Positions 10,075 to 38,864 of a stretch of 55,601 nt of DNA are shown piece after piece. Both the position numbers and the translations under genes were made by a program. The stretch's first letter is position 1. Every line of letters starts with the position of its first letter. Location of the stretch: NCBI GenBank assembly GCA_035687405.1, contig DASRXR010000480.1, forward strand, positions 1 to 55,601, read 5' to 3'. The notes below the pieces were generated by a model. The model was not told where the DNA came from. It ran no database searches and was given only the letters and a program-made list of their open reading frames with translations. This DNA comes from Polyangiales bacterium. GTDB taxonomy: Bacteria > Myxococcota_A > Polyangia > Polyangiales > JAFGIB01.

Positions 10075-12207
10075 TCAGCGCTTGTTCTTGTAACCGGCGT
10101 AGTTGAGAGCGGCTGGGATCTCGGCCTTCGAGACCTTCGCCGACGCGAGTGCTGCACTGGCCTCGTCTGCCGGTACTTCGTTCAAGCGCAACGCCAGCGC
10201 TACATCGCCCGGCGAGTAGTTCGACTTGCGCATGCTGTCCGCGATCTCCGTCGTCGGCGCGCCGAGCTTCTTCAACGCCTTTGCAACGAACGTGCGATCG
10301 GTTCCGGTTTCCTTCAACACGCCCGCGATGTCCTTGCGCGGCGTGCCCACGTCCGTGAGCGCAACTGCGATTTCGACCGGCTGGCACTTCGCGTCTTTGA
10401 GCCCGTTCGCGAGCTCGGTCTTGTTCGCCTTCGGAAAACCCTTGGCGACCTCGCTGCAGGTGAAGCCCGCGGTCTTGAGCGTGACTGCCGTCTTCGAAAG
10501 TGTCGCGCCATCGCCCTTCGTATCTTCGACGATCATCGGCGGTGTGTACCCCGCAGCCTTCAGCGTCTTGATCGTCTCGTCCTCGCTCAAGTTGAGCTTA
10601 CGCAGGCTCGCGACGATCTCCGGCCGTTTCACGCCGCTGCTCTTCAGCCCGGTGACAACTTCCGCCGGCGCCATCCCGCCCGCCTTCAACCCGAGTGCGA
10701 TCTCCGTGATCTTGTACTTCGCGGCGACGAGTGCACTGACTGCATCCTGCGGCGGCACACCCGCAGCGATGAACGCGCTCGAGAGATCGCCCGCGGCAAC
10801 GCCTTTCGTTTGCGCGGTCGCTGCGACGGACTTCGCAGTCGACTTCGCCGCGAGCAGCGCCGTCGCGATCGACTTCCACGGCATGTTCGCGCCTTGCATC
10901 GCCTCGATCATTTGCGAATCGGTCAGCTTGTTATCGCTCAGTGCCTTGCCGATCTCCGCATCCGTCGCCTTCTGTTGCTGCATCACCGTCACGAGCTCAG
11001 CCGGCTTTACACCGATCGCCTTGAGTGCACTCGCGCGCGCCGACGGGTCGGCATCGGCGACTTTCAACCCGCGCACGATGTTCGCCGCGTCGAAGCCGAC
11101 ATCCTTCAATGTGACCGCGATCTGATCGTAACTCTTGCCCTGCGACTTGAGCTCCTTTGCGAGATCACCCGCGAACACTTTGCCATCGCGCAGCGCGCTT
11201 GCGACTTGCGGCGGCGTGAGCTTGCGATCTTTCAGTGCAGCGGCGATGTCCGTGCCGGATTGATTCGCGCCTTTGAGCAGGACCACGATCTTTTCCGGCG
11301 CGACTCCCGCGAGCGAGAGCGCTTCTGCAACCTGAGTCGTGGTGTCACCGTACTTGATCAGCGCGCTCGTGATCTCCGCTTCGTCGACGCTGCTCTTCTG
11401 CAACGCACCGACGACCTCGCTCGGCTTGTACTTCGCCTGGGAAAGACCCGCGACGATCTCCGGCGTCCCGGCGTTGAGCGCCTTCAAGATCCCGACGATC
11501 TCGAGCGGCGTGAACGTGAATCGCAGCCCGGTTGCGATCTCAGCCGACTCGGTCAGCCCAAACGCGCCCAGGCCTTGGCCGATCTCCGCCTTCGAGTAAG
11601 CCGCATCGCGCATCGCTGCTGCCGCTTGCTTCGCATTTGCGCCATCCGACTTGAGTTCCGCCGCAGCTTCGCTCCCCGTCGCCTTCTTTTGCTTCAACTC
11701 TTTGGCCTTGGCGGTCCAGCTCGCCGCATCGGCGGGCCGAGCTGCTGTCGCGGACGGCACGACCGCATTCGACACCACGGGTGCAGGCGCGGGCGTCGGC
11801 CGCGGACCCATCGTTGGGCCGCCGGGGCCGCCGGGGCCGCCGGGGCCGCCGGGGCCGGCGGGCGCGGTAGGCGCAGGTGCAGGCGCGAGAACCGGTGCCG
11901 GTGCGGGGGCCGGAGCCGAAGCCACAGCTACTTGGGGAGGAGTTTTGTCACTTGCAGAATTACCTTTGTCGCTCGCTTGTTGAGCGAGCTTTTCGGCCTG
12001 TGCTTTCAGTTGGTCGGCCTGCTCCTTGAGCACCTCGGCTTGCTTCTTCAACTGCTCGGCTTGCTGCTTGAGCTCGGCCCTTTGTTGTGCGTCCGAGCTC
12101 GCGTTTGCGCTCGGCGCGATAGCGGGCTTTTTAGCCGGCTCCGCGAGAGCACTGGTGACCGGCACAGCGCATACGAAAAACAGCACTGTACGTGCGGCAA
12201 ACCTCAT
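10075..12207 (-). CDS. secreted repeat protein: signal peptide, coiled-coil-like segment, Pro/Gly-rich spacer, then 38 tandem short helical units
   Basis: 710 aa. Signal MRFAARTVLFFVCAVPVTSALA|EP. Heptad-like QQRAELKQQAEQLKKQAEVLKEQADQLKAQAEKLAQQ. Spacer APAPAPAPVLAPAPAPTAPAGPGGPGGPGGPGGP. Residues 178-705 parse into 36 units of exactly 14 aa plus two of 12 aa. Confidence 0.8.
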   Translation of the reverse strand: MRFAARTVLFFVCAVPVTSALAEPAKKPAIAPSANASSDAQQRAELKQQAEQLKKQAEVLKEQADQLKAQAEKLAQQASDKGNSASDKTPPQVAVASAPAPAPAPVLAPAPAPTAPAGPGGPGGPGGPGGPTMGPRPTPAPAPVVSNAVVPSATAARPADAASWTAKAKELKQKKATGSEAAAELKSDGANAKQAAAAMRDAAYSKAEIGQGLGAFGLTESAEIATGLRFTFTPLEIVGILKALNAGTPEIVAGLSQAKYKPSEVVGALQKSSVDEAEITSALIKYGDTTTQVAEALSLAGVAPEKIVVLLKGANQSGTDIAAALKDRKLTPPQVASALRDGKVFAGDLAKELKSQGKSYDQIAVTLKDVGFDAANIVRGLKVADADPSARASALKAIGVKPAELVTVMQQQKATDAEIGKALSDNKLTDSQMIEAMQGANMPWKSIATALLAAKSTAKSVAATAQTKGVAAGDLSSAFIAAGVPPQDAVSALVAAKYKITEIALGLKAGGMAPAEVVTGLKSSGVKRPEIVASLRKLNLSEDETIKTLKAAGYTPPMIVEDTKGDGATLSKTAVTLKTAGFTCSEVAKGFPKANKTELANGLKDAKCQPVEIAVALTDVGTPRKDIAGVLKETGTDRTFVAKALKKLGAPTTEIADSMRKSNYSPGDVALALRLNEVPADEASAALASAKVSKAEIPAALNYAGYKNKR
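10093..11676 (-). repeat. array of 42-nt coding repeats (14-residue protein units), diverged at DNA level
   Basis: Example consecutive units: VKRPEIVASLRKLN / LSEDETIKTLKAAG / YTPPMIVEDTKGDG / ATLSKTAVTLKTAG / FTCSEVAKGFPKAN ... APTTEIADSMRKSN / YSPGDVALALRLNE / VPADEASAALASAK / VSKAEIPAALNYAG. Residues 190-595 form 29 units with no phase break. Confidence 0.85.
11816..11857 (-). repeat. perfect 9-nt microsatellite, (GGGCCGCCG) x4 plus a 6-nt partial unit, in frame
   Basis: Read directly: gggccgccg at 11816, 11825, 11834 and 11843, then gggccg. On the minus strand it encodes the PGGPGGPGGPGGP segment of the repeat protein. Confidence 0.9.
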
Positions 12208-12790
12208 GGCGTCACACTCCCCTTAAGACGGCGTGAGACTAACCTGCGAACGCGTTCGGATGATAGAGCGGACGACACATGCTGATATGTACTGATTGTC
12301 CAGTTGTCTCATCTGGGTAGAGTCCGTGGCGCGGATGCCGTGAATTGCGCACGTGACGTTTGGAAGCGAACGCTCTCAATTCGAGTCCATTGCTGATGAG
12401 AATCAGCGGCAAAGTGAGACTCGATTTGCTCATCGGGTGGCACAACTAGACCAGCGTGGCTCGCCGTGATTGGCGTGATGGATGAAGTCGAGAGCGGATT
12501 GTTGGTTGCAGCCGTCAGCTGCGGTTGTTTGATGATGGTGGTCATTGAAGTGGCGTCGGGCTTGCCGTCGCCGTCGCCGTCAACGTCAACGACGTGAACC
12601 AGCCACCAACCGCTAGCTGACGCGGTTGTCATTCTTGGGTTGAGCTAGGACTTTCCCGCGCCAGGGAATGCTACCCTGGCGCCGTGTGTTGCAAGCGGTC
12701 GTAGCCACGGGTGCGCGCAGCGCTCGGCCGCGATCCCGCGCGGGTCCCGTACGCGCCCGCTTCTGCTTGCACGAATTGGAAGGAATGCTC

Positions 12791-13660
12791 ATGCGATTGA
12801 ACTCCCGGTGCATCTCGCTGTGCGTCTGTATGTGTCTCTTCTCGACTGCGTCGCTCGCGGCTGCACAACAACAAGCCGCGCCTGAATTGCCCCAACCGAG
12901 CCCGAAAGCGCGCATCGAGCAGCGCGTTGGGCTGACCGACTTCTCGGTCGACTACTCGAGCCCCGGCGTGAAGGGTCGCAAGATCTGGGGCGAGCTCGTG
13001 GCGTACGACAAACCGTGGCGCACCGGCGCGAACGCCGCGACGAAGCTGACCGCCAGCCGCGACTTCACGTTTGGAGGCAAGCCAGTGCCCGCCGGTAGCT
13101 ATGCGCTGTATACGGTTCCGGGGAAGACGGCGTGGCAAGTCGCTCTGAACACGAGCACTGACGCTTGGGGCAACGACGGCTTCGACGTCAAAAAGGACGT
13201 CGTTCGCGTGAGCGTGACGCCACAAGCGATCAAGGGTCGCGAGCGTCTGACGTTTCTGTTCAGCGACACGAGCGATGACGCAGTTCGCGTCGAGCTCGAG
13301 TGGGAAAAGCTGCGGGTCAGCATTCCGATCACTGTCGCGACCAAGCAGCAGGTGTTGACCGGGATCGACAAGGCAGTCGACGACGCATGGCGGCCCCACT
13401 TCGTGTCCGCGCGCTACCTGCTCGACAACAACGGCGATCTCACGAAGGCGCTCGGCTACATCGATCAATCGATCGCGATCAAGCCGACGTGGTGGAACAA
13501 CTGGGTCCGCGCGCAGATCCTCGCGAAACAAAACCGCGCGCAAGAAGCCGTCGCGACCGCGGAAAAAGCACTGCAGCTCGGCACCGGTGACCGCATGTTC
13601 GAGTCGTTCTTCAAAGAGGAAGTCACGAAGACGGTCGCTGGCTGGAAGAAGAAGGGCTGA
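12791..13660 (+). CDS. DUF2911 domain protein with a C-terminal TPR-like region, secreted
   Basis: ORF 12668..13660, trimmed to the ATG at 12791 (GGAAGGA upstream; MRLNSRCISLCVCMCLFSTASLAAAQ signal). FSVDYSSPGVKGRKIWGELVAYDKPWRTGANAATKLTASRDFTFGGKPVPAGSYALYTVPGKTAWQVALN matches my memory of the DUF2911 core. Confidence 0.8.
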   Translation: MRLNSRCISLCVCMCLFSTASLAAAQQQAAPELPQPSPKARIEQRVGLTDFSVDYSSPGVKGRKIWGELVAYDKPWRTGANAATKLTASRDFTFGGKPVPAGSYALYTVPGKTAWQVALNTSTDAWGNDGFDVKKDVVRVSVTPQAIKGRERLTFLFSDTSDDAVRVELEWEKLRVSIPITVATKQQVLTGIDKAVDDAWRPHFVSARYLLDNNGDLTKALGYIDQSIAIKPTWWNNWVRAQILAKQNRAQEAVATAEKALQLGTGDRMFESFFKEEVTKTVAGWKKKG

Positions 13661-13670
13661 GCACCAGCGC

Positions 13671-15260
13671 GTGACCGCGAGTATTTTCGACGCCTATCTG
13701 TCCGGCGGCGCAGGCGAGTTCTTTCCGAGCTCGTTTCTGCGCGCCGAGGATCGGCTTCGCGCGGTCGAACGGGCTGGGCGAATCACTCCGGCGGTGCTGT
13801 CCAGGCTCGAAGCGCAAAACGCGCGCTTCGGGCCGAGCCGAGCGCGCGCAGCGAATCTCGAGTCGCTCGCAGCTGGCGCGGCGGTGGTGGTCACCGGGCA
13901 GCAAGTCGGCTTGTTTCTCGGCCCGCTCTACACCGTCTACAAAGCGGCCACCGCGGTGCGCTGGGCACGTGCGCTCACTGAGCAAACCGGACGGCAGGTC
14001 GTGCCGGTGTTTTGGTTGCAGACCGAAGATCACGATCTCGAGGAGATCGCGCACTGTACCGTGGAGCGGCCACAGGCGGACCCGCTCCCACTCACAGTCC
14101 CGATCGAAGCCCACAACCACGTGTCGATCGCACATCTGGCGTTGCCGGAGTCGATTCGCGCGTGTCACGCGACGCTCGAAAGTGAGCTCGGCGGACTACC
14201 TGAAGCGCGGGTGCATCTCGACCGACTCGCACGACACTACCGGCCGGGTGCGCGCTGGAGCGACGCGTTTGCCGGAGTCTTGGCCGAGCTGTTCGAGCCG
14301 GAAGGGCTGCTCTTGATCGATCCGCGAGAGCGCGCGCTGGCGATCGAGTTGCGCGCGTTGCATCGCGCGGCGCTCGACAAATCGGAAGCCATCGGGACGC
14401 TATTGGTCGCTCGGCGCGATGCGCTCGAAGGCGCGGGTTACGAAGCGATCGTTCACGTGCGACCGGATGCGCCGCTCGCGTTTTTTCACGCCGAGGGTCC
14501 GGAGGGTCCGCGCCATCGGTTGGCGCCGTCGGGCGTGCGCCTGAGTGAGATCGGCGGCACCCGCAGCCATGAGCTGCCGGCGTTGCACGCGACGCTCGAG
14601 CGCGATCCGCTGTGCTTCAGCACGAGTGCACTACTCCGGCCGCTCGCGCAGGACACCCTGCTGCCCACGGCGGCGTACGTCGGCGGGCCGGCGGAAGTCG
14701 CGTACTACGCGCAGCTCGCGCCGCTGTACGCCGCGTTCGGAAAAGAGCTGCCACTCGTCGTACCACGCGCGCGATTTCGCGTGATCGAGCCGGCCGCCGC
14801 GCGGTTGTTGCAGCGCCACGGGCTCGAGCCGAGTGCGGCTGAGATGAGTGAGCAGGCGCTCTTACGCAAGCTCGCTTCGAGCGGTGACGGCGCGCCCGCG
14901 CCAGAGGCCTTCGCGTCGGAGCTGCGATCCGAGCTCGAAGCGGTGCTCGCGCGTGCTCTTGCAACGCTGCCGGAGCCGCTCGCTGCGCTCTCGGGGACGA
15001 TCGCAAAGACCCGGGCCAAGCTGGAGACGACCAGTCGAAAGCTCGCGGAGCGGTACGCCGACGTTCGAGCCACCGCCGACGAAGCGAGAGTGCGCGACGT
15101 ACGGCGCTTGCGAGTGATGTTGCAGCCGAACGGCGTGCCGCAGGAGCGCGAGTACGGCCTCGCGTACTTTGCCTCGAAGCTCGGTGAGCGCGCGTTTCTA
15201 GAGCGGGTGCTGCAGGCGATCGATCCATTCGATGCCGCGCGCAAGGAGTTGTGGTTATGA
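13671..15260 (+). CDS. bshC: bacillithiol biosynthesis cysteine-adding enzyme BshC
   Basis: ORF 13587..15260, trimmed to the GTG at 13671 (10 nt after the previous stop). It is collinear with B. subtilis YllA/BshC as I recall it. Shared motifs are VVVTGQQVGLFLGPLYTVYKAATAVRWA, VPVFWLQTEDHDLEEI, LLRPLAQDTLLPTAAYVGGPAEVAYYAQL and PQEREYGLAYFASKLG. Confidence 0.8.
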   Translation: MTASIFDAYLSGGAGEFFPSSFLRAEDRLRAVERAGRITPAVLSRLEAQNARFGPSRARAANLESLAAGAAVVVTGQQVGLFLGPLYTVYKAATAVRWARALTEQTGRQVVPVFWLQTEDHDLEEIAHCTVERPQADPLPLTVPIEAHNHVSIAHLALPESIRACHATLESELGGLPEARVHLDRLARHYRPGARWSDAFAGVLAELFEPEGLLLIDPRERALAIELRALHRAALDKSEAIGTLLVARRDALEGAGYEAIVHVRPDAPLAFFHAEGPEGPRHRLAPSGVRLSEIGGTRSHELPALHATLERDPLCFSTSALLRPLAQDTLLPTAAYVGGPAEVAYYAQLAPLYAAFGKELPLVVPRARFRVIEPAAARLLQRHGLEPSAAEMSEQALLRKLASSGDGAPAPEAFASELRSELEAVLARALATLPEPLAALSGTIAKTRAKLETTSRKLAERYADVRATADEARVRDVRRLRVMLQPNGVPQEREYGLAYFASKLGERAFLERVLQAIDPFDAARKELWL

Positions 15261-16429
15261 CACTGACTCGCGCGCGCACGGTCGCGATCGTTTGTTATCC
15301 GAGCCTGGGCGGCAGCGGCATCATCGCGAGCGAGCTCGGGGCAGGGCTGGCGCAACGTGGCCACACTGTCCACGTCATCGCAAGCTCGCAACCGAGCCGC
15401 GCGCTCCCTGTGTGCTCGCGCTTGTTCTTCCACGAGGTCAGTGCGCCGAGCTATCCGTTGTTCGAACAAGCGCCGTACACACTCGCGCTGGCTTCGACGA
15501 TCGCGCGCGTCGTTGGAGACCATCACATCGACATTGTGCACGTTCACTACGCGGTACCACACTCCGCGAGCGCGTATCTCGCACGCCAAGCACTCGGAGC
15601 CGCTGCGCCGCGGCTCGTGACGACACTGCACGGCACCGACGTCACGCGAGTCGGTGCCGATCCGAGCTATCAAACCATCACCCGTTTTTGCGTCGAAGCA
15701 TCGGATGCGATCAGCGTGCCTTCGGAGTATCTGCGCGAACAAGCCTGGAGCGCGCTCGGTATTTCAGCGTCGATGCCGATCGACGTCATTCCCAACTTCG
15801 TCGACGTCGATCGGTTTCGCAAACTCGAAGTGCGGGAGCCCCAACGCTTCGACGAGCTGTTCGAGGACTCGTCGACCGGGCCGCTCCTGTGTCACGTCTC
15901 CAATTTTCGCTCGGTGAAACGCGTCACGGATCTGCTCGAAGTGCTCGCTCGCGTCCGGCGCACGCTGCCGGCGAGGTTGTTGCTCGTCGGCGATGGTCCG
16001 GACCGGCCGGCCGCCGCGGCTCGCGCGCGCAGCCTCGGCATTCAGCGGAACGTTTGTTTTCTCGGCAAACGCTCGGACTTCGTCGACTTGCTGCAGCATG
16101 CCGATGTTTTCGTGCTCACGAGCGAGACCGAGAGCTTCGGCTTGGCAGCGCTCGAAGCTCTCAGCTGCGGTGTCCCGGTCGTCGGTTATCGCGTCGGCGG
16201 CGTTCCCGCGGTCGTGACCGAGGACGTCGGACGACTCGTCGCACCCTTCGATCTCGATGCGCTGGCAGCCGCCGTCGTGGAGGTCGTGTCCGAGCCAGCG
16301 TTGCGGGAGCGACTCGGCGATCGAGGCCGCGAACGCGTGCTCGCTAACTTTCGGCGCGAACCGGCGCTCGACGCGTACGAGCGCCTGTACGATCGCGCGC
16401 TGGCGGATCGCGGAGCTTCCGGAGCATGA
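15257..16429 (+). CDS. bshA: N-acetyl-alpha-D-glucosaminyl L-malate synthase BshA (GT4)
   Basis: ORF 15251..16429. The ATG at 15257 gives an ATGA overlap with the bshC stop. Motifs VAIVCYPSLGGSGIIASELGAGLAQRGHTVHVI, HVHYAVPH, TTLHGTDVT, HVSNFRSVKRV, LLLVGDGPD and ETESFGLAALEALSCGVPVVG are collinear with B. subtilis YpjH/BshA from memory. Confidence 0.8.
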   Translation: MTLTRARTVAIVCYPSLGGSGIIASELGAGLAQRGHTVHVIASSQPSRALPVCSRLFFHEVSAPSYPLFEQAPYTLALASTIARVVGDHHIDIVHVHYAVPHSASAYLARQALGAAAPRLVTTLHGTDVTRVGADPSYQTITRFCVEASDAISVPSEYLREQAWSALGISASMPIDVIPNFVDVDRFRKLEVREPQRFDELFEDSSTGPLLCHVSNFRSVKRVTDLLEVLARVRRTLPARLLLVGDGPDRPAAAARARSLGIQRNVCFLGKRSDFVDLLQHADVFVLTSETESFGLAALEALSCGVPVVGYRVGGVPAVVTEDVGRLVAPFDLDALAAAVVEVVSEPALRERLGDRGRERVLANFRREPALDAYERLYDRALADRGASGA

Positions 16430-19107
16430 TGCGTTTTCACGCGGTGGTTCTCGGTTGTGTGCTCGCAGTGCAGCCCGTGCGAGCACAGGAGGTGGCGATG
16501 GATGCGGGAAGACTCGCGCACGCGCTGGACCGGCTCTCGAGCACGGCGCGGGTGCTGTACGTCGCGGCGCATCCCGACGACGAGAACACGCGGCTGCTCG
16601 CCTACCTCGCGAACGCCCGGCACGTGAATGCGACCTATCTGTCGATGACGCGCGGAGGCGGCGGCCAGAACCTGATCGGACGCGAACAGGACTCGATGCT
16701 CGACGTGCTGCGGACGCAGGAGCTGCTCGCGGCGCGGCGGCTCGATAGTGCGCGCCAGCGGTTTACGCGCATGCGCGACTTCGGCTACTCGAAGTCGGCG
16801 CAGGAGACGCTTTCGATTTGGGGCCACGACGACGCGCTCGGCGACGTGGTGCGCGCGATTCGCTCGCTCCAGCCCGATGTGATCATCACGCGCTTCGACG
16901 AAAAGCCGCCCAACCACGGGCATCACACGGCATCGGCGATCCTTGCGCGCGAAGCATTTAGCGCTGCGGCCGATCCGAAGCAGTTTCCGGAGCAGCTCAC
17001 GCAAGGGCTGGCGGTGTGGCAGGCGAAGCGTCTGCTTCAAAACTGGCCGTTCTGGAAAGACGAGCAACCGCCCGCGGGCGCGATCAGCTTGGACGTCGGC
17101 GGCTACGACGTGCGGCTCGGCCTGTCGTACGGCGAGCTCGCAGCGCGTTCGCGCAGCCAACACAAGAGTCAGGGTTTTGGTGCAGCCGGTGAACGCGGGC
17201 CGCTGATCGAGCGGTTCGTCCAGGTTGCGGGGACACCTGCGACGGATGATCTCCTCGATGGAGTCGAGCTCGGCTGGGCGCGTTACGGAGCGCCCGGTCG
17301 AGTCTTTGCGGCGGCATTGCAAAAGGCGCGAAGTGCGCTGCACCGGGATTACCCGGAGCGCGCTTTGCCCGGGTTGGCGGAAGCCTGGCGAGCGCTTGCA
17401 GCGCTACCGGCAGCCGAACCGCGCGTGCGAGATGCGAAGACTGACCTGGCGAAGCTGATGGCGGCGGCGAGCGGGCTGTACGTTCGCGCGAATGCGACCA
17501 AGCCTGCGTGTTCGCCCGGCTCGATCACGCCGGTGCGCGTGGAGGTCGTGTTGCGTCGCCCCGCAGTCTTGCGGCTGTCGAAGCTGACGCTGCCGGATGG
17601 ATCTCCTGCCCCGCTGGCGCCGACCCCTACGCTGAAGACTGGCGCGGCCGAGCACGCGTGGCCGCCCAAGGATGCGCTCGCATCGACAATCGTCCCGGAC
17701 AGCGCGCTCCAGCTTGCGGCACAAGCGGTTCCGCAAAAGAGCCCGCAGCTGGCAGCTGCGGGGCAGGTCGCGCCGGTGCCGGCCGCCAGCACGACTGACC
17801 CTGCGGTGCTCGGGGTGCACGAGAAGCGTGAGATCAGCATCGAGCTCAAATGTCCTGCCAGCGCCGCTGTTTCGACGCCGTATTGGCTCGCCCAACCGCC
17901 CGAAGCCGGGCACTTCGTTCTCTCCGATCCGAACCTCGCCGATGATCCGGAAGGCAAACCGCCGCTGATGGCTTCACTCGACGTGAACCTCGCCGGCGTC
18001 GATCTCCGCCTTCCCGTTCCGGTCGTGTACACTTGGCTCGACCGCGTGCATGGGGAGCGCGAACGCCGCGTGCAGATCGAGCCTCCTGCGACCGCCACGC
18101 CCGCGCGCGACGCGGTCATGTTTCCGAACGGCCGGAGCGCAAAAGTGATCCTTCGCGTCCGCGCTGCGAAAGACGCGCTCGACGCTCGTGCGTTCTTGCG
18201 CTTACCGCCCGGCTACAAAGCCGAGCCCGCCGAGCAACGCGTGCAGCTCGCACGCCAGGGTGACGACACGACTGTCGAGTTCGTGGTCACGCCGCCGGCA
18301 GCCGCGAAGACTCCTGTGACCTCACGTGTGTACGCCGAACCGGTGATCGCAGTCGAGGGCCGCGACTACTCGTATCGCGAAGACGTGATCGACTATCCGC
18401 ACGTACCGCTACAAACAGTCCTGCAACCCGCGCGGATTCGGCTGTCGTCAGTGGCGCTCCAAAAGCCGCGCGGGCTCATCGGCTACGTCGAAGGCTCGGG
18501 TGACACGATCCCAGCCGACCTCGCGCACATCGGCGCGCAAGTCGAGTTGCTCAGCGACGCCACGCTGCTCGAGGGTGACTTGTCGCGCTTCTCCGCGATC
18601 GTGCTCGGCGTGCGTGCGTACAACACCCGCGACGTGCTTCCGCGCGTCCACGCTCGGTTGACGAAGTTCGCGGAGCAGGGCGGAACCCTGGTCGTGCAGT
18701 ACGTCACGCGCAGCTCGATCTCTCCGCTCGATGCGCCGGTCGGCCCGTATCCACTCGACGTCGGTCGTGGTCGCGTGACGGACGAAAACGCCGCCGTCCA
18801 CGCGATCGATCCCAACGATCGCGTGTTGCGCAGCCCGAACAAGATCGGACCCGAAGACTTTGCCGGTTGGGTTCAAGAGCGAGGCTTGTACTTCGGCGAA
18901 AAGTGGGACGAGCGCTACAAGCCCGTGTTCGAGATCGCCGATCCCGGAGAGCCCGCGCAACGCGGCGCGTTGTTAGTCGCGAAGGTCGGCCGTGGCCGCT
19001 ATGTCTACACCGGCCTCGCGTTCTTCCGGCAGTTGCCGGCAGGCGTGCCCGGCGCCTACCGCTTGTTTACGAATCTCTTGGCGCGCGCCACCGACGAGGC
19101 GCCGTGA
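16426..19107 (+). CDS. large PIG-L/LmbE-family deacetylase with an N-terminal signal peptide and a C-terminal GATase1/ThuA-like module
   Basis: 893 aa. The ATG overlaps the bshA stop (ATGA). Signal-like MMRFHAVVLGCVLAVQPVRA|QE. PIG-L motif VLYVAAHPDDENTRLLAYLANARHVNATYLSMTRGGGGQN. The C-terminal part reads GLIGYVEGSGDTIPADL...FSAIVLGVRAYNTRD...GGTLVVQYVT...GRYVYTGLAFFRQLPAGVPGAYRLFTNLL. Confidence 0.8.
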   Translation: MMRFHAVVLGCVLAVQPVRAQEVAMDAGRLAHALDRLSSTARVLYVAAHPDDENTRLLAYLANARHVNATYLSMTRGGGGQNLIGREQDSMLDVLRTQELLAARRLDSARQRFTRMRDFGYSKSAQETLSIWGHDDALGDVVRAIRSLQPDVIITRFDEKPPNHGHHTASAILAREAFSAAADPKQFPEQLTQGLAVWQAKRLLQNWPFWKDEQPPAGAISLDVGGYDVRLGLSYGELAARSRSQHKSQGFGAAGERGPLIERFVQVAGTPATDDLLDGVELGWARYGAPGRVFAAALQKARSALHRDYPERALPGLAEAWRALAALPAAEPRVRDAKTDLAKLMAAASGLYVRANATKPACSPGSITPVRVEVVLRRPAVLRLSKLTLPDGSPAPLAPTPTLKTGAAEHAWPPKDALASTIVPDSALQLAAQAVPQKSPQLAAAGQVAPVPAASTTDPAVLGVHEKREISIELKCPASAAVSTPYWLAQPPEAGHFVLSDPNLADDPEGKPPLMASLDVNLAGVDLRLPVPVVYTWLDRVHGERERRVQIEPPATATPARDAVMFPNGRSAKVILRVRAAKDALDARAFLRLPPGYKAEPAEQRVQLARQGDDTTVEFVVTPPAAAKTPVTSRVYAEPVIAVEGRDYSYREDVIDYPHVPLQTVLQPARIRLSSVALQKPRGLIGYVEGSGDTIPADLAHIGAQVELLSDATLLEGDLSRFSAIVLGVRAYNTRDVLPRVHARLTKFAEQGGTLVVQYVTRSSISPLDAPVGPYPLDVGRGRVTDENAAVHAIDPNDRVLRSPNKIGPEDFAGWVQERGLYFGEKWDERYKPVFEIADPGEPAQRGALLVAKVGRGRYVYTGLAFFRQLPAGVPGAYRLFTNLLARATDEAP

Positions 19108-19247
19108 ATCCGGAGCCGCAACAAGCCCCGTCGGACGAAGATCCGCCGCCGATCCTCGGCAGCTGGCAGCGGCTTTACGCGCTCGTCGTGATCGAGCTTT
19201 TGTTGTGCGCTGGGCTGCTCTACCTCCTCGCGAGGTGGGCCGCGTGA
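19104..19247 (+). CDS. 47-aa single-pass membrane peptide (micro-ORF between the deacetylase and the symporter)
   Basis: The GTG at 19104 overlaps the upstream stop (GTGA). Its own TGA (19245-19247) overlaps the GTG start of the symporter (GTGA). Sequence: VNPEPQQAPSDEDPPPILGSWQRLYALVVIELLLCAGLLYLLARWAA, with one hydrophobic helix. It is listed in the ORF track only as the tail of 18867..19247. Confidence 0.5.
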   Translation: MNPEPQQAPSDEDPPPILGSWQRLYALVVIELLLCAGLLYLLARWAA

Positions 19248-20959
19248 GCGTTCTCGACTGGGTCGTGATGGCCGGTACGATCGCGTTCATCGTGATCTAC
19301 GGCACGTGGCGTACGCGCGGTGTGCGCGACGTCGAAGGCTACTTTCATGGCGGCCACACGCTCAAGTGGCCGACGATCGGCCTCAGCATCATGGCCACGC
19401 AAGCGAGCGCGATCACGTTCTTGTCCACGCCCGGCCAAGCGTTCGACGACGGACTGCGCTTCGTGCAGTTCTACTTCGGCTTGCCGCTCGCGATGGTCGT
19501 GATCGCCGCCGTGTTCGTGCCGATCTACCACCGGCTCAACGTCTACACGGCGTACGAATACCTCGAACATCGCTTCGACGTGCGCGTTCGCTACTTCGGC
19601 GCGGTGCTGTTCCTGATCCAGCGTGGGCTCGCGACCGGCGTCACGATCTACGCTCCATCCATCATTCTCAGCTCGCTGCTCGGTTGGTCACTTCAAGCGA
19701 CGAACGCCGGTATGGGCTTGGTCGTGATCCTCTACACGGTGTTCGGCGGCACGCGCGCGGTCAGCGAGACGCAAAAGCAGCAGATGATCGTGATGATGGG
19801 CGGCATGGTCCTCGCGCTCGTGCTGATTGTATGGCGTTTGCCCGAGGGCGTGTCGCTGCCCAACGCGGTGAAGGTCGCCGGCGCGCTCGATCGCATGAAC
19901 GCGGTGAGCTTCGAGTTCGACTTCGCAAACCGCTACAATTTCTGGTCCGGGATCACAGGCGGCTTCTTTCTCGCGCTCGCGTACTTCGGCACCGATCAGT
20001 CGCAAGTGCAGCGGTACTTGTCCGGCCGTTCGATCGCAGAGAGTCGCCTCGGACTCCTGTTCAACGGCATGTTCAAAGTGCCGATGCAGTTCATCATCTT
20101 GTTCAGCGGCGTGATGGTGTTCGTGTTCTACCTGTTCACGCAGCCGCCGCTGTTCTTCAACACGCCCGTGCTCGATCAAGTCGAAGCGACGCCCCACGCA
20201 GCCGAGTTGCACGCGCTGGAACGCGAGTACGGGCAGGCATTCGAACGCCAGCGCAGCGCCGCGCTCGGCTACATTGCGGCGCTCGATGCGAGCCGCGACG
20301 TCGACGCCCAGCGGCAAGTGTTACGCGACGCAGCCCACGACGCCGACCAGGTGCGCGACCGCGCGAAGCACTTGATCGCGAAGGCTGTTCCGACCGCCGA
20401 GTTGAAAGACACCGACTACGTGTTTCTCGGGTTCGTGATCCAATACGTGCCGGTCGGGCTCGTCGGCCTCTTGATCGCGGTCATCATGTGCGCCGCAATG
20501 AGCTCGATCGCGAGCGAGCTGACGGCGCTAGGGTCGACGACGACGCTCGACCTGTATCAGCGGATTCGAGGTAAACCCGTCGAAAGCGAACGCGGCCTGC
20601 TGATCTCCAAGCTGTTCACGGCATTGTGGGGTGTGCTGGCAGTCGGATTTGCGAGCTTTGCTGCGCTGCTCGACAATTTGATCGAAGCCGTGAACATCCT
20701 CGGGTCGCTGTTTTACGGAACGCTCCTCGGCTTGTTTTTAGTCGGCTTCTTCTTGCGCAAGATCACCGGCACACCGACGTTGATTGCGGCGTTCCTCGCA
20801 GAGGCGCTCGTCCTCGGCCTGTTCTTCGCCTCGAACCTAGGCTTCCTCTGGTACAACGTCGTCGGCGCCGGGGCGGTCGTCGGATTTGCAATCGTGTTGC
20901 AACCGTTCGTGGGAACACCGCGAACACCACAGACTCCGCAAACTGCCGCTCAGAACTGA
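19244..20959 (+). CDS. sodium:solute symporter (SSF/SLC5) family transporter
   Basis: ORF 18992..20959, trimmed to the GTG at 19244 (VSVLDWVVMAGTIAFIVIYG...). The upstream part is Arg/Pro-rich and overlaps other genes. It is multi-TM. GGHTLKWPTIGLSIMATQASAITFLSTPGQAFDDGL is typical of the first SSF helices. Confidence 0.85.
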   Translation: MSVLDWVVMAGTIAFIVIYGTWRTRGVRDVEGYFHGGHTLKWPTIGLSIMATQASAITFLSTPGQAFDDGLRFVQFYFGLPLAMVVIAAVFVPIYHRLNVYTAYEYLEHRFDVRVRYFGAVLFLIQRGLATGVTIYAPSIILSSLLGWSLQATNAGMGLVVILYTVFGGTRAVSETQKQQMIVMMGGMVLALVLIVWRLPEGVSLPNAVKVAGALDRMNAVSFEFDFANRYNFWSGITGGFFLALAYFGTDQSQVQRYLSGRSIAESRLGLLFNGMFKVPMQFIILFSGVMVFVFYLFTQPPLFFNTPVLDQVEATPHAAELHALEREYGQAFERQRSAALGYIAALDASRDVDAQRQVLRDAAHDADQVRDRAKHLIAKAVPTAELKDTDYVFLGFVIQYVPVGLVGLLIAVIMCAAMSSIASELTALGSTTTLDLYQRIRGKPVESERGLLISKLFTALWGVLAVGFASFAALLDNLIEAVNILGSLFYGTLLGLFLVGFFLRKITGTPTLIAAFLAEALVLGLFFASNLGFLWYNVVGAGAVVGFAIVLQPFVGTPRTPQTPQTAAQN

Positions 20960-21579
20960 ACGCGCACCGGTACGGTCTGCGTCGCGCCCTCGGGGAACAA
21001 CAGCCCTTTGACGCGAATCGTCGTGCCCTTCATCAGCACGTCGGCTTCGTATTTACCGGGCGTGATCGCCGCAGGCTTCGCGCCGCTCTTCATCTCGGCG
21101 ACCACCGCCCCGTTGCGGAGCAGCTTCACGGGGATCCCATTCTGCGAGCGTCCGCCGACGAGCACATTGAGCGTGACCTTCGCCCACGGAAACGTCGCTT
21201 CGACCTGCGTCGTCTTGCCCGACTCGAGAAACACTTCGCGAGTCTGTTTCGGCGTATCCGCGAGTGAGGCAGCGTCACTGATCTGCAGCTCGATCTTGTG
21301 CGAGCCTGCGCGCAACGCGATCGTCGTCCCGCTCTCGCCTTCGCTCGCGATCTTGCCCGTTTCATCGAGCACGCGGATCCGCGCTGCCACCACTTGCCCT
21401 GCAACCAGCGCGCGGACGTTCATGCTCGCGGAACCCGTGTCGCGTGCCGGGCCATCCGAGATCACGAACGCACCCAGCTCGGTGCCGGAGCTCTCGGACA
21501 CCGGCGCGTAAGTCGCGCTCTGCAGCCAAGAGCTGCAAGCCATAATTCCGAAAAGCGACAACACGAGCGGGAAACGCAT
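20950..21579 (-). CDS. hypothetical lipoprotein, two beta-sandwich-like repeats
   Basis: 209 aa. MRFPLVLSLFGIMAC lipobox. There are two related halves (...AGSHKIELQISD... and ...PGKYEADVLMKG...). I recognise no family. The 3' end overlaps the symporter 3' end by 10 nt. Confidence 0.65.
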   Translation of the reverse strand: MRFPLVLSLFGIMACSSWLQSATYAPVSESSGTELGAFVISDGPARDTGSASMNVRALVAGQVVAARIRVLDETGKIASEGESGTTIALRAGSHKIELQISDAASLADTPKQTREVFLESGKTTQVEATFPWAKVTLNVLVGGRSQNGIPVKLLRNGAVVAEMKSGAKPAAITPGKYEADVLMKGTTIRVKGLLFPEGATQTVPVRVQF

Positions 21580-23211: not shown

Positions 23212-23631
23212 CTACCACTCGCCCGTGTTAGGCATCGACCGCCAAGGCTCGCGCGGCGGGAGCGCGTCGCCTTGCTGCAAGAGCTCGATCGAGATGTCAT
23301 CGGGCGAGCGTACGAACGCCATTCGCCCATCGCGCGGCGGGCGACGGATCACGACGCCGGCTGCCTGCAAGCGCTCGCAGGTTGCGTAGATGTCTTCGAC
23401 CGCGTAGGCGACGTGTCCGAAGTTTCGCCCGCCGCGATACTCCTGATCGTCCCAGTTGTACGTGAGCTCGATCTGCGCTTGATCGTCGTTCGGAGCGGCC
23501 AGGAACACGAGCGTGAAGCGACCTTGTTCGTGCTCGCGCCGGCGCAGCTCGCGCAGGCCGAGCGCATTGCAGTAGAACGCGAGCGACTTTTCCAGATCGC
23601 TGACGCGCACCATCGTATGAAGGTATTTCAT
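23212..23631 (-). CDS. gloA: lactoylglutathione lyase (glyoxalase I)
   Basis: 139 aa. [26 protein letters not shown]...IELTYNWD...[18 protein letters not shown]...ISIELLQ is collinear with E. coli GloA ([20 protein letters not shown]...IELTYNW...GHIALSVDN...KIELIE). Confidence 0.9.
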
Positions 23632-24840: not shown

Positions 24841-25770
24841 TCAGCCCGGGCCGGGGCCGCCATCCGGATTGTCGTCGTCACCCGGGGGTGGCGGCGGCGG
24901 AGGCGGGGTCGTCGGCGGGGGTGGTGGAGTCGTGGGCGGTTCGTCCGGGTCCCCCGCACACGCGGCGAGGCCAGCGTCCGAGTCGTCGTCGAACGTCACG
25001 CGATACTTCTCGCCGCTATCGGCTCCGATCACACCGCGCTGGTCGTGATCGACGATCACGGCACACACGCCTTCGGTCGCATTGCCGTTTCCATCGACGA
25101 CCCGCACACCGAGCTTGTAGACGCGCCCGTCTTTCGGGCCTTGGCGTTCGGATCGAACACAGGCGTGGCGGCCGTCCGCACTTACGCCGATGTCCGGAGA
25201 GTGATGTCCATCGCCGATGTCGTCGATCGGCTCATCGCTGCTCGCCCAAATGAACTCGCCGCGCAGCGTGCCGTCGCACGCATCGACTGCCGTCACGCAA
25301 TCTTCGACCGCGATGTCGTGGAACTTGTGGTTCGGCGGCCACAGCGCGATCGTGTGAGTCTCGAGGACCGGGGGCGTGTCGTCGATGACCTCCAGCTGCG
25401 TCGTACACAGCGTCGCGCCGGCGCGATCGCTGACGCGAATCGTGCGGACGTTCGAACCCGCGGCGCGCGTCTCCGTGATTCGCAAATCGTCGGTGTCGCA
25501 CGTCGTGCCGCTCGGGCTCTGGACGCGGATCGGTGTCAAGTCGTCGGCGTCGTCGCACGTAATCGAGGCGGGCGCGCTGCACTCCCAGCCGCTGCCAGCT
25601 GCAGAGCCGGCGGCGCACTCTGCCACCAGCGGCAAGGCTTGAGCCGTTTGCGCGGCGGATGTCGGTGCTGGTGAGGGGCCACCGGTATGGCTCGAGTTAC
25701 AGCCCGCGCCAGCCAGCCACAATGCGATTCCCGCCCATTGCTGCCATTTCAAAGTCGAATTGCGGTCCAT
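24841..25770 (-). CDS. hypothetical lipoprotein with a polyproline C-terminal tail
   Basis: ORF 24841..26328, trimmed to the ATG at 25770 (MDRNSTLKWQQWAGIALWLAGAGC lipobox). The upstream part overlaps the next gene and is Arg-rich junk. It contains TPPVLETHTIALWPPNHKFHDIAVEDCVTAVDACDG. The tail is PPTTPPPPPTTPPPPPPPPGDDDNPDGGPGPG. Confidence 0.65.
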   Translation of the reverse strand: MDRNSTLKWQQWAGIALWLAGAGCNSSHTGGPSPAPTSAAQTAQALPLVAECAAGSAAGSGWECSAPASITCDDADDLTPIRVQSPSGTTCDTDDLRITETRAAGSNVRTIRVSDRAGATLCTTQLEVIDDTPPVLETHTIALWPPNHKFHDIAVEDCVTAVDACDGTLRGEFIWASSDEPIDDIGDGHHSPDIGVSADGRHACVRSERQGPKDGRVYKLGVRVVDGNGNATEGVCAVIVDHDQRGVIGADSGEKYRVTFDDDSDAGLAACAGDPDEPPTTPPPPPTTPPPPPPPPGDDDNPDGGPGPG

Positions 25771-25814
25771 GCACAGACGGTGGGTGGACCCGGCTGCGCG
25801 GTTGAAAGAAAGTT

Positions 25815-26948
25815 TCAAAAGCGTGCAGTGAGCTCCAAGCCTACACGTGCGCGAACCCGGCCGAGGTCGACCAGCTCGTCGTCGTTCACGTCGAGGTGTA
25901 GGTGACGCGCCAGCGCTTGCAGTTGCATGCCCGCGAGCAGACTCACGAAACGCGTGAGTGGAACCTCCGCGTCGAGGCCCAGTGACAGTGCCCACGACGT
26001 CGGAGCCGCGTTTCCAGGGGTATCGGCGCGCGTGGTTCCGTGCGCCTCCAAGCCGACGAGCTGTGGTCCAGCGCGTGCTCCGAGCCAAAGTGGTCCGCTC
26101 TGCATTTGAGCGTGCAGCGCGGCGCCGACGGTCCATTCCCAGAAGCGAGCCGAGTTGCCCGCGCGCTCGACCTCGATGCTCGGAAATGCATCGAATCCGA
26201 GCGCGACCGCCAATCGGAATTGACGAAGGTCGAGGACGGGCCCGGCGCCGAGGCCGAAGCCCCATCGGCCGAGTCCCAGGTCCGGTTGAGAGCCGAGCCG
26301 GATGCCGGCCGACGCGAACGCGGTCCATCCCGGCGCGGTCGGAGGCGGCTCGTCGGGCTGTTCGTTCGGAAGTGCCGCTGATGACTGCGCCGCTGATGGC
26401 TGCGCCGCCACCGGCAGCTGCTCCTCGGCGCCCGAGGGGCCCGCAGCTGTCGGCGGCCGCCCCTCGGTTTGCAGAAGCTGCCCTGCCTCGGCCCGGGCGG
26501 CTTGGCCGCGCAGCATCGCCGCCACGAGCTCGCGAATTTTGAGCGCAGTCGTCCGCTCGAGCTCAGGTCCGCGATCTCCGGGCACCCGTACGACCTCGAT
26601 CAGGGCTCGGCCTTGCCGGTCTCCGACGACGTAGGCGACGACCGGGCCCCCGCCCTCAGCCGGACCCCGGTCGACCCAGACGGCTGCGAGCGCCCCCTGG
26701 TCGCGGACGAGTTGGCTCGCCCGCTCGATCGCCTCCGCCGCGCTCGCCGCGGGTGCCACGATGTGACGTTCCGGCTGCGCGAGCCCGGAGAGCTGGATCT
26801 GGAGCGCGACAAGAAAGCCTTTGGGTGCGCCGCTTTGCTCGAGCACCAGGACCCGGGGCTGGGCGGCGTGGGCCAAAGGCGCCCAAACGCCCACAAGCGC
26901 ACACGCCACCAGCAGAAAGGCGTGGCTGAGCTGGCTACGCGACCGCAT
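25815..26948 (-). CDS. hypothetical exported protein, C-terminal half resembles an outer-membrane beta-barrel
   Basis: 377 aa. Signal MRSRSQLSHAFLLVACALVGVWAPLAHA|AQ. The C-terminal ~170 aa has an alternating hydrophobic pattern rich in G/L/A and ends ...RVGLELTARF. A terminal Phe is typical of OMPs. Confidence 0.6.
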   Translation of the reverse strand: MRSRSQLSHAFLLVACALVGVWAPLAHAAQPRVLVLEQSGAPKGFLVALQIQLSGLAQPERHIVAPAASAAEAIERASQLVRDQGALAAVWVDRGPAEGGGPVVAYVVGDRQGRALIEVVRVPGDRGPELERTTALKIRELVAAMLRGQAARAEAGQLLQTEGRPPTAAGPSGAEEQLPVAAQPSAAQSSAALPNEQPDEPPPTAPGWTAFASAGIRLGSQPDLGLGRWGFGLGAGPVLDLRQFRLAVALGFDAFPSIEVERAGNSARFWEWTVGAALHAQMQSGPLWLGARAGPQLVGLEAHGTTRADTPGNAAPTSWALSLGLDAEVPLTRFVSLLAGMQLQALARHLHLDVNDDELVDLGRVRARVGLELTARF

Positions 26949-28843: not shown

Positions 28844-29727
28844 CTTCTAAGCGCATCGCGCTGTGGCTCGCCGCGGCGGGCACGTCCAGCTTTGCGTGGT
28901 ACTGCCTCGTCTCGTGCTTCGTCGTGTGCGGATGCTCGAATCGACATATCTCGCTCGCCCGCGATCGGGTGCGGGATGCCGGCAGCGGTCAGAGCGACGC
29001 TGCAGTCCCCGGAATCCGGGATGCAGCTGTGAGCGACGCCGCGATGGGCCGGGCCGACTCCTCGACTGCGCCGGGGCCCGATGCAGGCTCGGCTGCTCGA
29101 TGCGGCAACGGCCCGTGCGCTTGCGACGACGGTCTCGACAACGACGCGGACGGCCTCATCGATGGCCTCGACCCGGAATGCACTGGAGCGCTCGACCAAG
29201 ACGAAGCGACGTTCGCGACCGGCAGACTGAGCAAAGCGAAGAGCTGTCGCGACTGCTTTTGGGATGAAGATCAAGGTACGGGCATCGACGCCTGTCGCTA
29301 TCCGAGCGCGTGTCTGCGTGGCGAGAAGCCTAACGGGAACGGCAACTGCAGCAGCTGTCAGGTCGCGCAAGAGTGTCTGAACACTTGCGCCACGCGCACG
29401 CCAAACGGTTGCGACTGTTTCGGCTGCTGCGAGGTCGCGCGCGCCGACGGCGTGAGCGTGACGATCGAGCTCGGTGAACGCTGCTCGCTCGACAAGATCG
29501 ACGACACCGCCGCCTGCCCGCGCTGCACCCAGAGCTCCCAGTGTCGAAACGAATGTGGCCGCTGCGAGCTGTGCCCGGGCCGGACGCTGAAAGATCTGCC
29601 CGCCGACTGCCTCGCGCGCACTCCGCCGAACCAATGCGACGAAGGTCAACCCGTGTGTGAATTCTCCCCAGATTGCACCACAGACCAGTATTGCCAGCAG
29701 GGGTGCTGTTTCGTCTCGTTGCTCTGA
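28840..29727 (+). CDS. exported Cys-rich protein (about 30 Cys) with a DGLDNDADGLID metal-binding-like motif
   Basis: ATGA overlap with the anti-sigma stop. 295 aa. N-terminal TM/signal MTSKRIALWLAAAGTSSFAWYCLVSCFVVCGC. Then CGNGPCACDDGLDNDADGLIDGLDPEC and dense CxxC/CC motifs (CDCFGCCEV, CPRCTQSSQCRNECGRCELCPG, CQQGCCF). Confidence 0.7.
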   Translation: MTSKRIALWLAAAGTSSFAWYCLVSCFVVCGCSNRHISLARDRVRDAGSGQSDAAVPGIRDAAVSDAAMGRADSSTAPGPDAGSAARCGNGPCACDDGLDNDADGLIDGLDPECTGALDQDEATFATGRLSKAKSCRDCFWDEDQGTGIDACRYPSACLRGEKPNGNGNCSSCQVAQECLNTCATRTPNGCDCFGCCEVARADGVSVTIELGERCSLDKIDDTAACPRCTQSSQCRNECGRCELCPGRTLKDLPADCLARTPPNQCDEGQPVCEFSPDCTTDQYCQQGCCFVSLL

Positions 29728-38560: not shown

Positions 38561-38582
38561 GGCACCACCCCAATTTAATGAA

Positions 38583-38855: not shown

Positions 38856-38864
38856 CGGCGACTC

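Follow-up and report, generated by a model that had tools for sequence, protein, structure and literature searches.

Bacillithiol synthesis genes of a Polyangiales bacterium share an operon with a conserved module of an exported PIG-L family enzyme, a membrane micro-protein and a sodium/solute symporter

In the stretch of Polyangiales DNA analysed here (55,601 nucleotides (nt), about 65% G+C; hereafter the window), six open reading frames (ORFs) on the same strand occupy positions 12791-20959. They include bshC and bshA, two genes for the synthesis of the thiol bacillithiol (BSH), and a gene for an unusually large protein of the PIG-L family. An earlier note on this DNA had described the six genes as tightly coupled, and a check of the sequence reproduced all five of the junctions that it gave. 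The region is one operon, in which the cytoplasmic bshC and bshA are joined to an independently conserved envelope module. The genes are the following (product lengths in amino acids, aa):

12791-13660, + strand: DUF2911 gene, with its TGA stop at 13658-13660
13671-15260, + strand: bshC, for the bacillithiol cysteine-adding enzyme; GTG start at 13671, after a gap of 10 nt from the DUF2911 gene
15257-16429, + strand: bshA, for the GT4 N-acetylglucosaminyl-L-malate synthase; ATGA overlap with bshC at 15257-15260
16426-19107, + strand: gene for the 893-aa PIG-L family protein; ATGA overlap with bshA at 16426-16429
19104-19247, + strand: micro-ORF, coupled translationally with both of its neighbours, for a single-pass membrane micro-protein of 47 aa; GTGA overlap with the PIG-L gene at 19104-19107
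19244-20959, + strand: gene for an SSF (SLC5-type) Na+/solute symporter; GTGA overlap with the micro-ORF at 19244-19247

The operon is limited on its 5' side by an intergenic region of 583 nt followed by a divergent gene (10075-12207, - strand), and on its 3' side by a convergent ORF (20950-21579, - strand) that overlaps the stop of the symporter gene (20959). A simple scan found no terminator-like site above background at any of the junctions (12 sites, as against 8.2 +/- 3.2 in shuffled sequence). For bshC an in-frame GTG at 13587 is likewise open as a start; we favour 13671 because the alignment to TIGR03998 begins at residue 16 (model position 18) and because the gene called in a second Polyangiales locus, L081, leaves a gap of 13 nt. 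This locus comes from a metagenome-assembled genome (MAG) whose large protein is 67% identical to that of the window; it has the six genes in the same order and keeps three of the four 4-nt overlaps. Because order and near-identical coupling recur there, the layout is conserved and is not a matter of chance ORFs in GC-rich DNA. A terminator-like hairpin of 7 pairs with a T-rich tail was seen at 12607-12628 (+ strand), about 160 nt 5' of the DUF2911 start, and may insulate the operon from upstream transcription.

The genes were assigned to families by NCBIfam (TIGRFAM) and Pfam profile searches against the curated cut-offs, at E<=0.01. The product of bshC scored 388.1 bits against TIGR03998 (cut-off 265.8) and aligned over 507 of the 529 aa, model positions 18-524 of 529. 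Both domains of the enzyme, the Rossmann-like N-domain and the coiled-coil C-domain, were found, as PF10079 (235.5 bits, aa 39-366) and PF24850 (38.3 bits, aa 371-522). The product of bshA scored 426.3 bits against TIGR03999 (cut-off 273.7); the next-best GT4 model gave 136.5 bits, under that model's own cut-off. Judged by these profiles, BshC and BshA are genuine proteins of BSH synthesis. Both scores lie above the NCBIfam equivalog cut-offs and not below them, so the identities that the earlier note had given to the two genes stand.

The first gene of the operon encodes a DUF2911 protein (PF11138, 169.3 bits against a gathering threshold of 27, aa 37-180, model fully covered) with weak TPR matches at aa 238-267, in a TPR-like C-terminal region. 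Its N-terminus, MRLNSRCISLCVCMCLFSTASLAAAQQ, is signal-like and the protein is predicted to be exported; it is also a recurrent partner of the module described below. A direct sequence search of the PDB gave no match to DUF2911.

The large PIG-L protein could be divided into the following parts:

16426-16485, + strand: Sec-type signal peptide, MMRFHAVVLGCVLAVQPVRA before QE, with N-terminal K/R, a hydrophobic core and an AxA-Q site
16555-16956, + strand: PIG-L catalytic core (aa 44-177, Pfam), with the motifs AHPDDE, TRGGGGQN and NHGHH
17476-18453, + strand: beta-sandwich (Ig/macroglobulin-like) middle domains, all-beta at aa 351-676 by DSSP on the AlphaFold2 model
18454-19104, + strand: ThuA-like or class-I glutamine-amidotransferase-like C-terminal domain (separate domain model with predicted local distance difference test (pLDDT) 86 and predicted template-modelling score (pTM) 0.88)

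The signal peptide, which had been noticed before as a possible cleavable signal, turned out to be a conserved feature of the family. When N-termini were reconstructed for homologues from 80 genomes of all the phyla sampled, 78 of 79 had such a signal, and the sequence itself was not conserved. We take it to be a real Sec signal peptide because its features are kept while the N-terminal sequences are unrelated. The possibility that the gene had been called from a start too far upstream was also considered, given that Met25 is invariant in close relatives and that three database entries begin there. This was ruled out, since there is no Met at that position in Bacteroidota, Acidobacteriota and other homologues, and since the canonical signal peptide is so nearly universal.

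The only Pfam domain of the protein is PF02585 (57.6 bits, cut-off 28.2). In the family profile alignment H49, D51 and D52 pair with H13, D15 and D16 of MshB (1Q74), and H164-G-H166-H167 pairs with H144-P-D146-H147 of MshB, so that D146 of MshB is replaced by His. The metal-site residues (H49/D51/D52 and H164/H167) were invariant in 22 homologues, and we read the metal site as intact. Homologues are numerous, making up 7999 of the 8000 candidates scored. They measure about 800-900 aa and bear no annotation beyond "PIG-L family deacetylase" or "LmbE family N-acetylglucosaminyl deacetylase". The top matches, 54-66% identical, are spread across Polyangiales, Binatia and Acidobacteriota.

The AlphaFold2 model of the whole protein (pLDDT 72.9) consists of the PIG-L domain, a helical linker, all-beta domains and a C-terminal alpha/beta domain. 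The middle domains matched beta-sandwiches of macroglobulin, FXIII and GH2 proteins in Foldseek searches, and such matches dominated the full-length query to the point of making it uninformative; the C-terminal domain was modelled separately. In the first beta-sandwich region there is an Ala/Pro/Gln-rich, disordered insert (aa 401-456; 17626-17793; pLDDT below 50), present only in the protein of the window and its closest relatives (P0002, P0008). Some of the PIG-L homologues carry PF10633, the NEW3 or NPCBM-associated domain.

The GATase1/ThuA-like C-terminal module suspected in the earlier note was borne out at the level of the fold. The PDB matches of the domain model were STM3548 (2gk3), the ThuA-like 1t0b, 4jqs and the GH42 oligomerisation domain 5e9a (E 4e-7 to 1e-4, probability 1.0, TM 0.5-0.57). 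Neither an invariant or near-invariant Cys nor an invariant His was found in this region (aa 677-893) in either of the two alignments made (A1 and A2), and the domain has no Pfam ThuA or GATase match. It is probably non-catalytic, lacking the Cys-His-Glu triad to judge from the alignments. The 220 C-terminal aa therefore have the same fold as non-catalytic ThuA-like or GATase1-like domains such as the GH42 oligomerisation domain, STM3548 and 1t0b, with the difference that here the fold is fused to a PIG-L enzyme and lacks both the Pfam match and a conserved nucleophile. This PIG-L plus ThuA-like architecture had no counterpart among the solved structures in the PDB searches that we ran.

The 47-aa membrane peptide of the earlier note belongs to a real conserved family of small proteins. 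In most of the loci compared across phyla an ORF of 33-63 aa ends at, or within a few nt of, the start of the symporter gene (in L081 it is called as 43 aa). Across phyla the final 35 or so residues align without a gap and share a PP motif, a transmembrane helix, an invariant Tyr and a near-invariant Trp, replaced by Phe in a single sequence. A phmmer search of 1.84 billion representative proteins gave 78 clusters at E<=1e-3; all except one, a 253-aa multi-stretch match, were proteins of 39-105 aa that aligned end to end. No Pfam or NCBIfam family matched the micro-protein at E<=0.01, including DUF485, DUF997 and DUF4212. A tiny membrane protein coupled just 5' of an SSF symporter is known from ActP/YjcH (DUF485), PanF/YhdT (DUF997) and the VC_2705 family with DUF4212, and the micro-protein is probably likewise a small subunit of the symporter. 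The system described here differs from these three in that the peptide lies outside their families and has its own PP...W...Y motif, in that the symporter has a family-specific loop of about 100 aa, and in that three bsh genes part the peptide from the symporter in one clade.

The symporter itself passes the general models (TIGR00813, 218.5 bits against 184; PF00474, 131.6 against 22.8). It stays below the cut-offs of the specific subfamilies and equivalogs, namely PRK10484 (YidK-type; 142.8 against 401), PanF (56 against 328), PutP (53 against 515) and TIGR03648 (VC_2705 family; 41 against 321). The nearest solved structures were SMCT1, NIS, the sialic acid carrier SiaT and SMVT (131-147 bits), with vSGLT and SGLT1/2 lower (71-95 bits); these matches lie mainly over the N-terminal 300 or so residues, and only the N-terminal half aligns strongly. 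The symporter thus resembles SiaT, SMCT1, SMVT and NIS best while passing the equivalog model of none. A place in the carboxylate/anion branch of SLC5, and not in the neutral-sugar SGLT branch, fits these scores and would suit a malate-bearing solute. The loop, hydrophilic and probably helical (aa 300-400 approximately; 20141-20440), is situated between the two membrane halves and was present in all 63 of the module-linked homologues, with only 23-34% conservation. A weak match of this loop to part of the model of the iron exporter MbfA was also seen.

The large PIG-L gene, the micro-protein gene and the symporter gene, often together with an exported DUF2911 protein, form a module that is not confined to this operon. 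One genome per GTDB species was scanned for the large PIG-L protein, which gave at least 599 loci, and the best 80 were kept for comparison of neighbourhoods; neighbours were counted by tblastn, ORF clustering being noisy in the GC-rich loci (wrong-strand ORFs). The kept loci come from Myxococcota, Acidobacteriota (Holophagae, Bryobacterales, Pyrinomonadaceae, Aminicenantes and Thermoanaerobaculia), many Bacteroidota, Ignavibacteria, Eisenbacteria and Chthoniobacterales. The symporter gene is placed directly 3' of the large PIG-L gene in 63 of the 73 loci with enough sequence, and 42 of the 80 genomes have a DUF2911 homologue no more than 10 kb away from the PIG-L gene. No further neighbour was conserved beyond the family level in the 80 loci. 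Neighbours conserved in Flavobacteriaceae were examined as possible parts of the module and rejected as housekeeping genes (a KdsC-like HAD protein, Maf, UbiA, CorA and MscS). Conserved in at least six phyla, the module is ancient and widespread. The earlier note had seen the large protein as filling the "PIG-L slot" of a bsh operon, a view that finds no support, as in many phyla the module stands without adjacent bsh genes.

Nine genomes had the large PIG-L gene and no adjacent symporter gene (L017, L028, L031, L038, L044, L052, L059, L061 and L065; among them Dyadobacter, Spirosoma, Emticicia and a Bryobacteraceae MAG), therefore the enzyme can occur uncoupled from the transporter.

The comparison of neighbourhoods revealed four layouts in which bsh genes adjoin the module:

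Polyangia (window, L081, L001, L004): DUF2911-bshC-bshA-PIGL-micro-SSF
Other Myxococcota (L002, L008, L009, L010, L014): bshC-(bshB1)-bshA, divergent from PIGL-micro-SSF
Aminicenantes type (L029:9306-17906): DUF2911-PIGL-micro-bshC-bshB1-bshA-SSF
Chthoniobacterales MAG (L036): DUF2911-PIGL-micro-SSF-orf-bshB1-like-bshA, with BshA at 394 bits

In Myxococcus (L002) bshC and bshA have a BshB1 gene between them. In the Aminicenantes MAG (L029) BshC, BshB1 and BshA scored 496, 253.3 and 532 bits, all above the equivalog cut-offs (that of BshB1 being 182.5). The small PIG-L gene of the Chthoniobacterales locus, at 127 bits, is under the same BshB1 cut-off. A scan of metagenomes seeded with BshC yielded 18 contigs with a BshC at least 47% identical to that of L029, and 62 more distant loci. 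The Aminicenantes-type layout was present, as far as each contig reaches, in 16 of the 18 (L082-L091, L093-L095, L097, L122 and L161; GC content 0.44-0.64; BshC identity 47-75%).

Because the gene orders differ between phyla, we regard the fusions as independent. Repeated fusion, in one case splitting a micro-protein/symporter pair that is otherwise tightly coupled, is the strongest evidence of a functional connection between the module and BSH.

Two other proteins of the Chthoniobacterales locus were noted: a 256-aa ORF with no family assigned, between the symporter and the bshB1-like gene (L036:14289-15059), and a 510-aa protein with a weak palmitoyl-thioesterase-like match before the DUF2911 gene (L036:7462-8994). 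In three related Flavobacteriaceae genomes of Maribacter and Flagellimonas (L046, L050, L051) a BshB1-like gene on the other strand stands about 8-9 kb 5' of the gene for the large PIG-L protein. Housekeeping genes come between the two, and synteny within the lineage, not coupling, is the probable reason.

The position of the large PIG-L gene directly after bshA raised the question whether its product could be BshB, the deacetylase of BSH synthesis. It shares with BshB1, BshB2 (Bca), MshB and Mca the PIG-L fold, the zinc-site AHPDD, the His pair that aligns with H144 and H147 of MshB and a genetic association with bshA and bshC, and its best match among thiol hidden Markov models (HMMs) is the conjugate amidase Mca. 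It differs from these small cytoplasmic enzymes in being 3-4 times larger, in having beta-sandwich and ThuA-like domains and a signal peptide, and in its changed motifs 2 and 3 (GGGGQN and HGHH). All four equivalog cut-offs are far above its scores: 16.2 bits for BshB1 (TIGR04001; cut-off 182.5), 21 for MshB (224), 39.1 for Mca (TIGR03446; 277.2), which is the highest-scoring thiol-pathway model and still far below membership, and no match at E<=0.01 for BshB2 (TIGR04000). A BshB would be expected to be a single-domain cytoplasmic protein of about 220-240 aa, and here there are 893 aa, at least four domains and a signal peptide. Nor is the large protein the sole PIG-L partner of the bsh genes, for orthologues stand beside a true BshB1 in the L029-type loci and in Myxococcus L002. 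From the HMM scores, the signal peptide and the coexistence with BshB1, we reject the identification: the large PIG-L protein, on this comparison, is not the biosynthetic deacetylase. Since canonical BshB1 coexists with it in the Aminicenantes-type loci, it cannot simply have replaced BshB there; the large enzyme works beside BshB1 and not in its place.

A small BshB was also searched for in the vicinity. No tblastn match was found in the window, whose six reading frames together contain only one HPDD motif. The window corresponds, in reverse, to about 18.5-74.1 kb of contig k141_246650 (241,497 bp) of the ENA metagenome assembly ERZ27268082, and no PF02585 gene is present in the further 8 kb and 6 kb of this contig that were examined on its flanks. 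BshB1 is already named throughout Myxococcaceae by the NCBI annotation pipeline PGAP; BSH genes in myxobacteria are therefore not new in themselves.

To our knowledge no transporter or extracytoplasmic enzyme of BSH metabolism has been described so far, and what is known of bacillithiol biology concerns the cytoplasm alone and was learned for the most part in Gram-positive bacteria. The fusions of bsh genes with the module point to what would be an undescribed periplasmic branch of processing and uptake. We propose that the large enzyme would act in the periplasm on a BSH-related compound with a glucosamine (GlcN) or N-acetylglucosamine (GlcNAc) amide; candidates are BSH, its disulfide BSSB and its S-conjugates, whose Cys-GlcN amide would be cleaved as by Bca or Mca, or GlcNAc-malate, which would be deacetylated. 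The symporter, with the micro-protein as its subunit, would import the carboxylate-bearing product, for example GlcN-malate, by Na+ coupling, and BshC would re-use it, the whole amounting to a branch of BSH salvage or turnover in diderm bacteria. From comparative genomics, the ground on which the proposed mechanism stands, we infer which compound is the substrate, in which direction the flux would run and what the DUF2911 protein would do. The linkage in four arrangements and the fact that Mca is the nearest thiol model (39 bits, BshB1 16) speak for it, and the lineages reported or annotated with bshA-C among diderms, namely Bacteroidota, Acidobacteriota, Ignavibacteria and Myxococcota, match the carriers of the module (PMC6282198; PGAP for Myxococcaceae).

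As a functional analogy only, we may mention the salvage of glutathione in Gram-negative bacteria by a periplasmic gamma-glutamyltranspeptidase and uptake, where an exported hydrolase is likewise combined with re-import of the fragments. The difference is that the transpeptidase belongs to the Ntn-hydrolases, which are unrelated to PIG-L, and that the BSH-type substrate here is putative. The best known arrangement of bsh genes, mgsA-bshB1-bshA of Bacillus subtilis (with bshC elsewhere), also has bshA beside a PIG-L-family gene; here bshC and bshA are adjacent, there is no mgsA and the PIG-L neighbour is an exported multidomain enzyme.

Several observations weigh against the proposal. The module is away from bsh genes in most of the genomes that bear it (Bacteroidota and Terriglobia-like Acidobacteriota), and around the 62 distant BshC genes, which are Terriglobia-like (32-38% identity), neither the module nor any further bsh gene was seen. 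The architecture of beta-sandwich and ThuA-like domains resembles that of glycan-active enzymes and could mean an oligosaccharide substrate other than BSH. Motif 2 reads TRGGGGQN where MshB has TLGEEGE and motif 3 HGHH where it has HPDH, and because of these deviations the chemistry of the substrate is not safely extrapolated from BshB or MshB. We know of no report that these organisms send BSH out to the periplasm. Full-text searches of the literature, among them some on myxobacterial BSH, returned no description of the module or of large exported PIG-L proteins, nor of a function for DUF2911, a BSH transporter or a periplasmic BSH enzyme. With these points set against the linkage, we give periplasmic hydrolysis of a BSH-related compound, Na+-coupled uptake and re-use by BshC a chance that falls only a little short of even. 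A more specific form of the proposal is a diderm "bacillithiol cycle", in which the PIG-L amidase would cleave BSH, its disulfide or its S-conjugates in the periplasm, a two-component carrier made of the micro-protein and the symporter would recapture GlcN-malate, BshC would recharge it with cysteine and DUF2911 would possibly be a binding partner of the amidase. In Polyangia, where the operon has no bshB1, deacetylation might even depend on the large enzyme alone. This closed cycle we hold as a tentative idea, and rather unlikely.

The main rival is a general system of scavenging, in which an N-acetylated amino sugar or sugar acid, from fragments of chitin, peptidoglycan or exopolysaccharide, is deacetylated in the periplasm and taken up, the link with the bsh genes reflecting only co-regulation or a shared supply of precursors (GlcN or GlcNAc to UDP-GlcNAc). 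The PIG-L family includes deacetylases of chitobiose and other GlcNAc-glycosides, beta-sandwich and ThuA-like domains are typical of glycan-active enzymes (GH42, GH2), PF10633 occurs in some homologues, the module is apart from bsh genes in most Bacteroidota, and the only paper on DUF2911 that we found is a metasecretome study of a lignocellulolytic consortium. From a generic sugar system, however, one would not expect three or four independent fusions with bsh genes, one of them splitting the micro-protein from the symporter across a GC range of 0.44-0.64; moreover no glycoside hydrolase, SusC/D, sugar kinase or deaminase is conserved beside the module in any phylum, and the symporter groups with carboxylate and anion carriers and not with those of SGLT type. 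Scavenging of this kind is possible, and we would not call it probable. If instead the adjacency were an accident of rearrangement, kept by vertical descent within lineages and empty of functional meaning, its absence from most module-bearing genomes would be natural, and all seven Myxococcota loci could stem from one ancestral juxtaposition. The different gene orders in Myxococcota, the Aminicenantes-type clade and Chthoniobacterales would still require independent events, bshA and the PIG-L gene are linked here by a start/stop overlap of 4 nt, and in the Aminicenantes type the micro-protein/symporter pair is split by the bsh genes while the module as a whole stays together; an accident seems to us improbable.

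Less probable still, and indeed very hard to credit, is that the 893-aa protein is the functional BshB of this organism, either because it is not really exported or because GlcNAc-malate is exported, deacetylated and re-imported before BshC acts on it. One can adduce for this the intact metal-binding residues, the ATGA overlap with bshA, and the lack of a small BshB1-type gene in the operon, the window and the 14 kb or so of flanking contig examined, as also in the Polyangia-type loci L081, L001 and L004. It is opposed by the score of 16 bits where the BshB1 model asks for 182.5, by the signal peptide of 78 of the 79 homologues, by the coexistence with bona fide BshB1 in the Aminicenantes-type and Myxococcus loci, by the annotation of BshB1 throughout Myxococcaceae and by the cost of a periplasmic detour for a biosynthetic intermediate. 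Since bsh genes are commonly scattered around genomes, and this one is probably many times larger than the 70 kb or so covered, failure to find a small BshB there carries little weight. The earlier note had left two alternatives, a signal-like segment without function or an operon that couples thiol synthesis to deacetylation outside the cytoplasm and to Na+-coupled uptake; because the signal is conserved the former is unlikely, and the comparative data favour the latter, read as extracytoplasmic hydrolysis.

Among the neighbouring genes, a glyoxalase gene 2.3 kb downstream had been taken in the earlier note as an echo of the link between BSH and methylglyoxal. It is encoded on the opposite strand and parted from the operon by three unrelated genes (the convergent ORF of no known family, an S1/P1 nuclease and a PEBP protein), and no homologue of it was found in any of the 161 related loci; its proximity is treated here as coincidence. 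By type it is a glutathione-type (lactoylglutathione lyase) GloA, found here in a part of the genome with genes for bacillithiol synthesis. The Pyr_redox_2 gene at 5154-6332 was considered as a BSSB reductase of the YpdA/Bdr type and set aside for want of such an NCBIfam match. The neighbours concerned are:

10075-12207, - strand: 710-aa ORF, with only a sub-threshold DUF7626 match (24.2 bits, cut-off 27)
20950-21579, - strand: 209-aa ORF, no significant Pfam or NCBIfam family
23212-23631, - strand: glyoxalase-I-like gene, borderline with TIGR00068 (117.5 bits against 120); NF050074, 98.6 bits against 165
24841-26328, - strand: 495-aa ORF, no significant Pfam or NCBIfam family; an uncertain call that overlaps other candidate ORFs in GC-rich DNA

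Further away, an operon for carbohydrate-type ABC uptake (36776-44177, - strand) encodes a solute-binding protein, two permeases and, in separate genes, two ATPases, of which one has OB/TOBE domains and is MalK-like; before the operon comes a PETase-like alpha/beta hydrolase of 451 aa. A large helicase of the Lhr type (30661-34929, - strand; 1422 aa) has the full set of Lhr winged-helix domains and adjoins a membrane protein of the Bax1-I family (29673-30626, + strand). PEGA-domain proteins recur on the contig (8014-10074, + strand, in the window, and L164:3603-4847), and upstream a protein with a Kazal-like inhibitor domain and a small Cu/Zn-superoxide-dismutase-like ORF were seen among the gene calls in L162.

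Every part of the system can be placed in a known superfamily; the novelty lies in the architecture of the large enzyme, in the micro-protein family and in the extracytoplasmic branch of BSH metabolism proposed from them. Bacillithiol has been proposed as the most widespread low-molecular-weight thiol in bacteria (PMC6282198). Thousands of genomes carry the four-gene module, among Bacteroidota, Acidobacteriota and Myxococcota of soil and sea, and its description gives a first functional context to the "LmbE family" proteins of 800-900 aa, to DUF2911 and to a new membrane peptide of 40-50 aa. If the link with BSH were wrong, the module would still be a widespread, unannotated system of an exported hydrolase and a symporter. 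Because Myxococcus species carry the module beside bshC-bshB1-bshA, genetically tractable hosts are available, and the locus with its relatives constitutes a testable set of candidates for the transport and the extracytoplasmic functions of BSH. If true, the "bacillithiol cycle" would give bacillithiol metabolism its first transporter and its first enzyme outside the cytoplasm.

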